Of a stretch of DNA of 64,000 bases, positions 61,558-64,000 are shown piece after piece. Made by a program: the position numbers. The first letter of the stretch is position 1; every line of letters starts with the position of its first letter. This stretch comes from Escherichia coli (lineage in GTDB: Bacteria > Pseudomonadota > Gammaproteobacteria > Enterobacterales > Enterobacteriaceae), in the NCBI RefSeq assembly GCF_003018235.1, contig NZ_CP027437.1; one strand, 5' to 3'.

Positions 61558-64000
61558 TTACCCTGAACTGACGATACAACAAAGGCGCAACGCTTTTGAG
61601 ATAAAGGATCGATGCTTTCACTGCTTTTACCCTCTACCATTAGGCTAATTGCGACGAGAAAGGGACGACCTATGAATACTAACGTTTTTCGACTGCTCCT
61701 GCTGGGAAGCCTGTTCAGCCTTAGCGCCTGTGTGCAGCAAAGCGAAGTGCGACAGATGAAACACAGCGTCAGCACGCTGAACCAGGAGATGACGCAACTC
61801 ATTGACATCCTCCACGCCCTGAAGGACGTGGATCCCTGCTACGTTCAGGCTGTCGCCTGAATCATTTCGGTGGGTTCCTGCTTCAACGGGCGGCCTGACT
61901 GCACCATCCCTCCACAGGCAAGAACGGCGTGCCCCGCCGCTAAAATGTTACGAGCGCCATTTACATCGGCGTTCGCTGTATATCCACATACCTGGCATCT
62001 GAATTTACTTTGTGACAGGCGATTTTCTTTCGCTGTATGACCACAGCACGTGCAACGCTGGCTTGTGTACGCTGGCGAAACAGCAAGCACCTGACCGCCA
62101 CGCCAGAGCTGCTTGTACTCAAGCTGGCGGCGCATTTCATACCAGCCCTGATCCAGTATCGAACGGTTTAAACCTGATTTTGCCCGGACATTGCGCCCCG
62201 GCTGGCTGACCGTACCCGCTGCTGACTTTGACATGTTGCTGACCTTCAAATCCTCAATGACTATCATTGCGTGGTTTTTGCTGACGGTCGTTGTGACTTT
62301 GTGAAGGTAGTCCCTGCGGATATTTGCGATACGGGAATGCAGTCGCTGTATTTTGCGTTTCTGCTTCTGCCAGTTGTTGCTGAATTTGACCTTGCGGCTT
62401 AACTGTCGCTGAAGTCTCGCCAGCGTCTTCTGGTTTTTCTGAAAACTGTTTACAGGCTCAAAGACTGTGCCATCTGACAGCGTGGCGAGTTTAGCCACGC
62501 CAGCATCCAGCCCGACCATTGATGCTGAAGGGTGAACCGGAGTTGATACTTCACTTTCTGTCTGAATACTGATGTACCACTTACCGCAGGACTGGCTGAC
62601 CGTGACATTTTTCACAACACCCGTGACCTGACGGCTGTTCCGGTAGCGCATCCAGCCCAGTTTCGGCAGAAAAATACGGCTGTTTTCCTGATCGAGCTTA
62701 ACGCCCTGCGGGTAGCGGAATGCATCATTCTGTCCCCGCTTTTTGAATCGGGGAAAAGCAGCCCGCTTCTGGAAGAAGTTTTTGTAAGCCCGCTCAAGGT
62801 CTTTCAGTGACTGTTGCAATGGCTGTGACGGGGCATCTTTAAGCCATTGCGTTTCAGTGGCATTTTTCCACTCAACCAGCCAGGAAGCCATTTTCCCGTA
62901 AGGGATGTATTTATTACCGGCCTCATGATTCTCATTCTGAAGCGCCAGAGCACGATTGAAAACGAAACGACATGCGCCTGCGAAGCGCCTCATTTCACAC
63001 TCCTGTTGACCACCTGGTCTTAACTGGAATTTAAATGCCTGTAATCGTTTCACAGGTCAAATGATACTTTGGTCTATGAAAAAAGAAACCGATATCCGGC
63101 GTGGAAGGCATTGTGTTTTCCTGATGCATGTTCACCTGGTCTTTGTCACCAAATACCGACGCCAGATTTTTGACCATGACGCGACAGAAAAACTACGCAC
63201 TTACTTTTCAAATGTATGTGCTGATTTTGAAGCTGAACTGGTTGAAATGGATGGCGAACCAGATCACGTCCATTTGTTAATTAACTATCCTCCCAAACTG
63301 GCGATATCCAGTCTGGTAAACAGCCTCAAAGGCGTATCGGGTAGGTGACTGCGACGAGATCGACCAGATATTGCAGTCAGGTATTACTACAAAGGCGTTT
63401 TGTGGAGTCCTGGCTATTTTGCCAGTAGCTGCGGAGGTGCGCCAATATCCGTCATCCGCCAATACATTGAACAACAGCAAACACCTGGTCAGGTGGAAAA
63501 CCGCGCCTTATATCCCCGCCCTGAAGGACGGGGTTTTACGGCGCACCGGATAAAGAAACAGTCAAAATCACTCAGCAAAACAGGCTGAATGCAAAATCCA
63601 GCAGTGGGGTTTACCTTCTGCCTGGAGCGAAAACACCAGCAAGACTGGAAAGCCAGATCGGTACTTACGTATGTCGCTGGTGAATATTACGCCTGATACA
63701 GATGGCACCACCCTGACGCTACGTATTCAGGGCGAGTCGAATGATCCCTTGCCCGCATTCAGCGGAACTGTTGAATATGGGCAAATTCAGGGAACAATAG
63801 ACAACTTTCAGGAAATCAATGTGCAGAATCAATTGATTAACGCCCCTGCCAGCGTCCTCGCCCCTAGCGATGTTGATATTCCGTTACAGTTAAAGGGTAT
63901 TTCTGTGGATCAGTTAGGCTTTGTACGTATCCACGACATTCAACCTGTTATGCAGTAAACGTATCGCAGGGCGTTTTGTGCGTCCCGCAACATCTTTTCC

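Follow-up and report, generated by a model that had tools for sequence, protein, structure and literature searches.

The stretch of Escherichia coli chromosome analysed here (a 64-kb region, referred to below as the window) has the gene order thiL-nusB-ribH-ribD-nrdR-yajI-tsx, and its yajI gene contains a complete IS609 element of the IS200/IS605 family, 1748 bp in length, at positions 61802-63549 on the minus strand (Table 1). An IS200/IS605 element with these limits had been proposed in an earlier note made from the window sequence, and the transposase profile match listed in Table 1 agrees with that assignment. The element could be named because both of its limits are exactly those of the repeat_region annotated as 'IS609, family IS200/IS605' in strain Sakai (O157:H7), to which it is 98.2% identical over 1748 bp, with equal ends. 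Matches with 98-99.9% identity were detected in 5015 of 5426 complete E. coli genomes, and strain MEI003 contained a copy 100% identical to the window element. Compared with reference IS609 (the ISfinder name; insP/insQ in K-12), the window copy has the same length, limits, divergent tnpA/tnpB layout and end hairpins, shares 98.2-98.5% DNA identity with the Sakai and K-12 copies, and differs only by its location in yajI and by three substitutions in TnpB (P326S, A335T and E382G). The element, its family, the insertion and the mechanism invoked below have all been documented before, and the insertion is already in RefSeq, where the identical locus is annotated as a split DUF3251/YajI gene with 'insQ: RNA-guided endonuclease InsQ/TnpB' and 'tnpA ... 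internal stop'.

Table 1. Features of the IS609 insertion in yajI; positions are those of the window.
Feature	Position	Strand	Basis or remark
yajI 5' fragment, codons 1-43	61672..61801	+	Empty-site comparison, RefSeq annotation
Right-end flank, presumptive omega-RNA guide TGAGTTGCGTCATCTC	61786..61801	-	Read directly from the sequence
Predicted omega-RNA scaffold	61802..61972	-	Last ~100-130 nt of tnpB plus a 43-nt tail; 5' limit uncertain
Right end: hairpin 61811-61832, TTCA loop	61802..61836	-	DNA fold, direct repeats
Right-end cleavage motif TCAA	61802-61805	-	
Presumed right-end DNA guide GGGA, or GGAT with the hairpin foot one base in	61833-61836 (GGGA) or 61832-61835 (GGAT)	-	
tnpB (insQ), 402 aa, GTG start, intact ORF	61845..63053	-	PF12323, PF01385, PF07282
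tnpA pseudogene, Y1/HUH transposase	63061..63492	+	PF01797, E 3e-42
Left end: 16-nt spacer, then imperfect hairpin 63514-63533	63490..63549	-	DNA fold, direct repeats
Presumed left-end DNA guide AAAA, end of the 16-nt spacer	63534-63537	-	
Target/TAM motif TTTAT, directly 5' of the left end	63550..63554	-	Conserved core TTAT at 63550-63553
yajI 3' fragment, with an extra 1-bp deletion	63550..63958	+	Empty-site comparison

Joining position 61801 to position 63550 restored yajI, and the junction aligned without gaps to the intact gene of Ecol_316 (...GCAACTCA/ATAAAGAAAC..., the slash marking the junction). A clean insertion at caactca/ataaag with no duplication had been proposed, with the proviso that the ends might lie elsewhere on alignment to an empty yajI. 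Alignment to Ecol_316 gave the ends exactly as claimed, and target-site duplication was absent. Moreover, the limits of the element cannot be shifted in either direction because the bases flanking each junction differ. The yajI site was empty in ~5080 genomes and split at the same place in ~344 of 5424. The insertion into yajI was thus described correctly, but a further lesion in the gene was overlooked: a 1-bp deletion in a T run at ~63664 shifts the frame of the 3' remnant. CS5L has the same yajI insertion and no such deletion, which identifies the latter as later decay in the window lineage. At the insertion site (63552), K-12-type yajI alleles read ATCAAG, not ATAAAG (Lys>Gln), which corresponds to TTGAT instead of TTTAT on the tnpB strand; such alleles therefore lack the TTAT target discussed below.

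With regard to the chromosomal background, the window was identical to MEI003 over 60941-63864, a segment that includes nrdR, IS609 and most of yajI. In the adjacent ribD gene (60032-60940), the two sequences differed at 42 sites in ~900 bp (4.6%). Judged from these comparisons, identity across nrdR-yajI beside a divergent ribD is a recombination mosaic, in which one yajI::IS609 haplotype appears in different backgrounds.

Direct-repeat searches and DNA folds of the element revealed subterminal imperfect palindromes at both ends, located on one strand, and terminal inverted repeats were absent. On the tnpB strand, the 5' end reads CCGGTGCGCCGTAAAA-CCCCGTCC-TTCA-GGGCGGGG and the 3' end reads TCCACGTCC-TTCA-GGGCGTGGA-GGATGTCAA. 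The two hairpins are in direct orientation and have a common TTCA loop and a common T.G position. The identical loops of the earlier description were therefore present, as was its right end ...GTCAA: the terminus is ...GGATGTCAA, with TCAA as in IS608, and was invariant among all E. coli copies compared. The 14-nt hairpin core occurred just twice in the 64-kb window (0.47 occurrences expected by chance), in the two end hairpins, and the search with this motif found no second IS609 copy within the window. In several relatives (L018 and L049-L052, 63-96% TnpB identity), the right-end hairpin had a loop longer by ~14 bases and was preceded by a different sequence, and their termini were unchanged (GGAGGATGTCAA).

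These ends resemble those of IS608 from Helicobacter pylori, which also has subterminal imperfect hairpins on one strand, inserts 3' of a tetranucleotide without duplication, and has a TCAA right end ~10 nt 3' of the hairpin foot. The two elements differ in the target (TTAC in IS608, TTAT in IS609), in the length of the left spacer (19 and 16 nt, respectively) and in gene layout: tnpA and tnpB are co-directional in IS608, whereas in IS609 they are divergent and share a 7-nt gap. Since the starts of tnpB (GTG, minus strand) and tnpA (ATG, plus strand) are this close (63053-63061), each gene's promoter must sit within the coding sequence of the other.

The motif TTTAT, proposed previously as the TAM, was indeed found directly 5' of the left end. 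We compared ~14 independent insertion sites, 7 of them in E. coli genomes (yajI, yedK, yfeD, ydcO, a TetR-family gene adjoining ytfB, yfaV and yeaQ/yeaR) and ~7 in IMG/VR viral contigs. A group of phage-plasmids (L020-L030) was used as a tentative CTTAT site only, as its left ends are degenerate and their coordinates, obtained by BLAST extrapolation, appeared to be off by one base. TTAT preceded the left end at 13 of the ~14 sites, and the base 5' of it could be T, C, G or A. With the fifth base varying in this way, TTTAT was rejected as the conserved motif in favour of TTAT; on the sites compared, it describes the yajI site alone and is not an established TAM. The one exception, L018, had a TTAC target together with AAAG in place of AAAA beside its left-end hairpin. 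This joint change fits the guide rule of IS608 and indicates that the IS609 transposase recognises TTAT through the left-end guide AAAA. The four bases 5' of the left hairpin thus obey one rule in both elements (TTAC/AAAG in IS608 and TTAT/AAAA in IS609), and the target rule of IS609 is made clear. With regard to the nuclease, ISDra2 uses TTGAT. The TAM of Geobacillus GstTnpB2 is TTTAT (Meers 2023, bioRxiv 10.1101/2023.03.14.532601), and that of IS609 TnpB is a putative one, suggested by the insertion sites.

The Y1 transposase gene of the window copy is broken. A repaired tnpA sequence scored 148 bits against the Y1 transposase profile NF033573 (transpos_IS200, cutoff 55), and the in-frame TGA reported earlier was located at codon 96, where Leu TTA changed to TGA (63346-63348; T>G at 63347). 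The residues of the HUH motif (69-71) lie before this stop and the catalytic Tyr134 lies after it. In addition, the natural stop codon changed from TAG to CAG (63490-63492), a second lesion that had been missed, and the frame continues through the left end. Copies in Sakai, F6326 and PCP06235 have an intact tnpA with TTA at codon 96 and TAG after residue 143, and in the outgroup (L037-L040) codon 96 is Leu and codon 144 is a stop, so both lesions are derived. With a TGA before the catalytic Tyr and no natural stop, the window IS609 is non-autonomous and cannot move by itself.

We considered two ways in which tnpA could nevertheless be functional. In the first, the TGA would be a sequencing or assembly error in a gene that is truly intact, which the earlier note had named as an outcome that would overturn its reading. 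Apart from the fact that a single base is concerned, nothing favours this explanation. The identical base was present in independently sequenced complete genomes, in IS609 copies at yajI, yedK, yfeD and ydcO, and also in a second yajI copy (CS5L) that is 1.4% diverged; an exact 57-mer with TGA was found in 2597 records (2331 for the TTA version), and the second lesion in the gene would remain. An error was accordingly rejected, its probability being negligible. Because the allele is common to copies at four loci, the TGA did not arise in the window copy. The K-12 copy in ydcO, for example, has both the TGA and the stop loss seen in the window.

The second possibility is that the TGA is leaky and read-through yields full-length TnpA, in which case IS609 would be attenuated yet autonomous. 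The occurrence of the TGA at four insertion sites and in ~2600 records means that the elements carrying it moved or converted one another, and the stop lies in the context TGAC (63346-63349); in E. coli, termination is at its weakest when TGA is followed by C. However, TTA copies are present in ~2300 records, and some of those sampled have a fully intact tnpA, so that the spread is accounted for by gene conversion or by TnpA acting in trans. Furthermore, the copies with the TGA have been damaged further: all of them lost the natural stop, the yfeD copy also has Tyr134Ser and His23Pro, and the CS5L copy has a tnpA frameshift. Other lineages at ydcO carry different nonsense mutations, a pattern expected of plain decay. 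We therefore regard an autonomous element sustained by read-through as highly improbable, and trans-mobilisation or gene conversion as likelier sources of the spread across loci. Mobilisation of the non-autonomous window copy by TnpA in trans is plausible, since both of its ends match exactly those of copies whose tnpA is intact; its left end, for instance, has the same sequence as that of the PCP06235 copy.

In contrast to tnpA, tnpB is intact, as had been claimed, and forms a single ORF whose product contains HTH, OrfB_IS605 and Cas12f1-like TNB domains. The protein scored 389 bits against the NCBIfam model guided_TnpB (NF040570, cutoff 100), and residues 3-376 aligned end to end with ISDra2 TnpB (8exa, E 8e-56). 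The RuvC triad (D183, E267 and D363) was present and aligned with the catalytic residues of ISDra2 TnpB, which we take to be D191, E278 and D361. Zinc-finger CxxC pairs were located at 334-337 and 353-356, and none of the three private substitutions mentioned above affects a catalytic or CxxC residue. IS609 TnpB is thus similar over its full length to ISDra2 TnpB (Karvelis 2021; Meers 2023), with the catalytic residues conserved. An intact ORF is no guarantee of activity: the interference assay of Meers 2023 (bioRxiv 10.1101/2023.03.14.532601) detected no activity for the TnpB homologue from IS608. The searchable literature contained catalogue mentions of IS609/InsQ TnpB and no functional study of it.

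We then examined whether the 3' end of tnpB may encode an overlapping RNA. An Rfam search of this region returned HgcC (E 0.011), RAGATH-18 (E 0.02) and sot0042, all on the minus strand within 61789-61972; their scores of 17-24 bits were below the gathering thresholds of 50-88 bits, and no family reached its gathering score for the tnpB 3' region. The sotRNA/HgcC families (RF02656 and RF00062), built from archaeal sequences, comprise transcripts that overlap an IS1341-type tnpB at its 3' end in the sense direction and finish in a right-end hairpin with a UUCA tetraloop, an arrangement that the predicted IS609 RNA would share. A consensus fold based on a 19-sequence alignment of relatives showed compensatory changes in 7 pairs, some in the terminal hairpin and others in an inner stem; since TnpA uses the terminal hairpin as DNA, covariation there cannot separate a role as RNA from one as DNA. 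Among 12 distinct tnpB genes, synonymous diversity was 0.38 over codons 1-357 and 0.17 over codons 358-402. In Gomes-Filho et al. (PMC4615843), sense-overlapping transcripts are described at the 3' ends of IS1341-type tnpB genes, including one in E. coli K-12 RNA-seq, and a UUCA tetraloop is linked to HgcC; the right-end hairpin of the window IS609 has this UUCA loop. The K-12 transcript presumably comes from the IS609 copy of K-12, and W3110 has a single IS609 copy. Together, the sub-threshold Rfam matches, the compensatory pairs, the low synonymous diversity and the K-12 transcript lend indirect support to a putative functional RNA that overlaps the end of tnpB. The consensus fold also predicted an invariant long-range pairing between ACAUUUU within tnpB (~61942-61948) and AGGAUGU near the right-end terminus (~61805-61811); both strands of this predicted pairing are invariant (alignment columns 90-96 and 242-248).

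Read on the tnpB strand, the sequence 3' of the right end is TGAGTTGCGTCATCTCC and the empty site is CTTTAT/TGAGTTGCGTCATCTCC, such that the guide-matching flank abuts TTTAT. The claim that the guide matches the unoccupied yajI site thus holds for the sequence, but it does not distinguish this insertion: the donor joint left after excision consists of the TAM and the right-end flank (Meers 2023, bioRxiv 10.1101/2023.03.14.532601), and this is true of every IS200/IS605 insertion. According to the same study, TnpB cuts the donor joint and the element is restored by recombination. The situation at yajI::IS609 is similar to that of TnpB homing in Geobacillus ISGst, in which the guide comes from the right-end flank and TAM plus flank equals the empty site. 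At the occupied locus, the guide-matching flank is preceded by GTCAA and not by TTAT; the occupied yajI site should therefore escape targeting.

As a whole, the locus is very probably best explained by a non-autonomous IS609 with a dead tnpA and an intact tnpB that follows the homing and retention logic published for its family. The element would have reached yajI through single-strand 'peel-and-paste' transposition, landing without duplication 3' of TTAT on the tnpB strand, and TnpA supplied by a different copy could still cut it out. The most likely partner of TnpB is an omega-RNA, presumably derived from the 3' part of the tnpB transcript, with a final stretch of ~16 nt that would be read from the yajI flank. 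If the element left, the TnpB-omega-RNA complex, provided that the nuclease is active, would cleave TTTAT + TGAGTTGCGTCATCTC at the rejoined site, which would be repaired from a sister copy still carrying IS609. This homing function may be idle in the window strain, because TnpB has nothing to counteract if no functional TnpA is present in the cell to excise the element. As a discovery yajI::IS609 carries little weight, being a known insertion sequence that behaves as the published model predicts; it provides a natural case in E. coli in which the published TnpB homing logic can be followed.

The suggestion that the nuclease was kept after loss of the transposase could be examined by comparison of IS609 copies, with the selection tests covering 8 to 17 copies. 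The tnpB ORF was intact in 17/17 sampled E. coli copies and tnpA in 3/17. The pN/pS ratio was 0.30 for tnpB and 0.63 for tnpA in 9 E. coli copies; for tnpB, it was 0.16 in the wider IS609-like family (12 genes) and 0.23 between the two yajI copies (window and CS5L). Eight copies in ydcO (L006 and L065-L071) are orthologous, with flanks in common, and tnpA occupies 1560-1991 of this locus. Their tnpB genes had 18 synonymous and 19 non-synonymous changes (pN/pS 0.29, binomial p = 4e-4) and were open in 8/8, whereas tnpA was broken in four ways (a stop at Leu96, Tyr76 or Glu62, and a frameshift). By length alone, the chance that tnpA (432 nt) takes all four lesions and tnpB (1209 nt) is spared is 0.005. 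Similarly, the two yajI lineages have 18 differences in tnpB and zero lesions, and a second tnpA frameshift arose in one of the two. Within these samples of 8-17 copies, the substitution patterns and the ydcO lesions support purifying selection on IS609 tnpB while tnpA decays repeatedly, in line with the earlier suggestion.

Several of the same observations could be read differently, namely that the whole element is a decaying relic, in which tnpB is intact for lack of time and TnpB and the omega-RNA are functionless. The window tnpA is dead, the yajI fragment is decaying further, and in some other E. coli copies (H88 and H126) tnpB is interrupted or deleted. Moreover, E. coli core genes are expected to be under stronger constraint than that indicated by the tnpB values of 0.23-0.30. 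However, the synonymous excess in tnpB is significant, and the lesions at ydcO, as well as those separating the yajI copies, spared tnpB while falling on tnpA. We consider a functionless relic unlikely, and purifying selection on tnpB remains the reading that we prefer.

That the nuclease outlasts the transposase has already been published for the IS200/IS605 family: most tnpB genes have no nearby tnpA (Meers 2023, bioRxiv 10.1101/2023.03.14.532601), and the asymmetry in E. coli agrees with this. What is mildly new is that, at the fixed and near-universal ydcO locus, tnpA decayed repeatedly and independently, in at least four ways, next to a tnpB under constraint. It is conceivable, if rather doubtful, that IS609 tnpB has been selected long after its own tnpA died, with a persistent role of TnpB and its omega-RNA that does not depend on a transposase in cis. 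If so, this role could be homing via TnpA of other copies in the population or a host function, such as guarding of the locus or action on incoming DNA.

IS609 derivatives that lack tnpA altogether were also observed, in viral contigs and in plasmid pCUPF12A (L013-L030, L043-L044, L056 and L064). In these derivatives the left end is only 84 nt upstream of tnpB. One subgroup was found in P1-like phage-plasmids, beside head-processing and lysozyme genes, and had a degenerate left end and a right end that reads TCAC, not TCAA.
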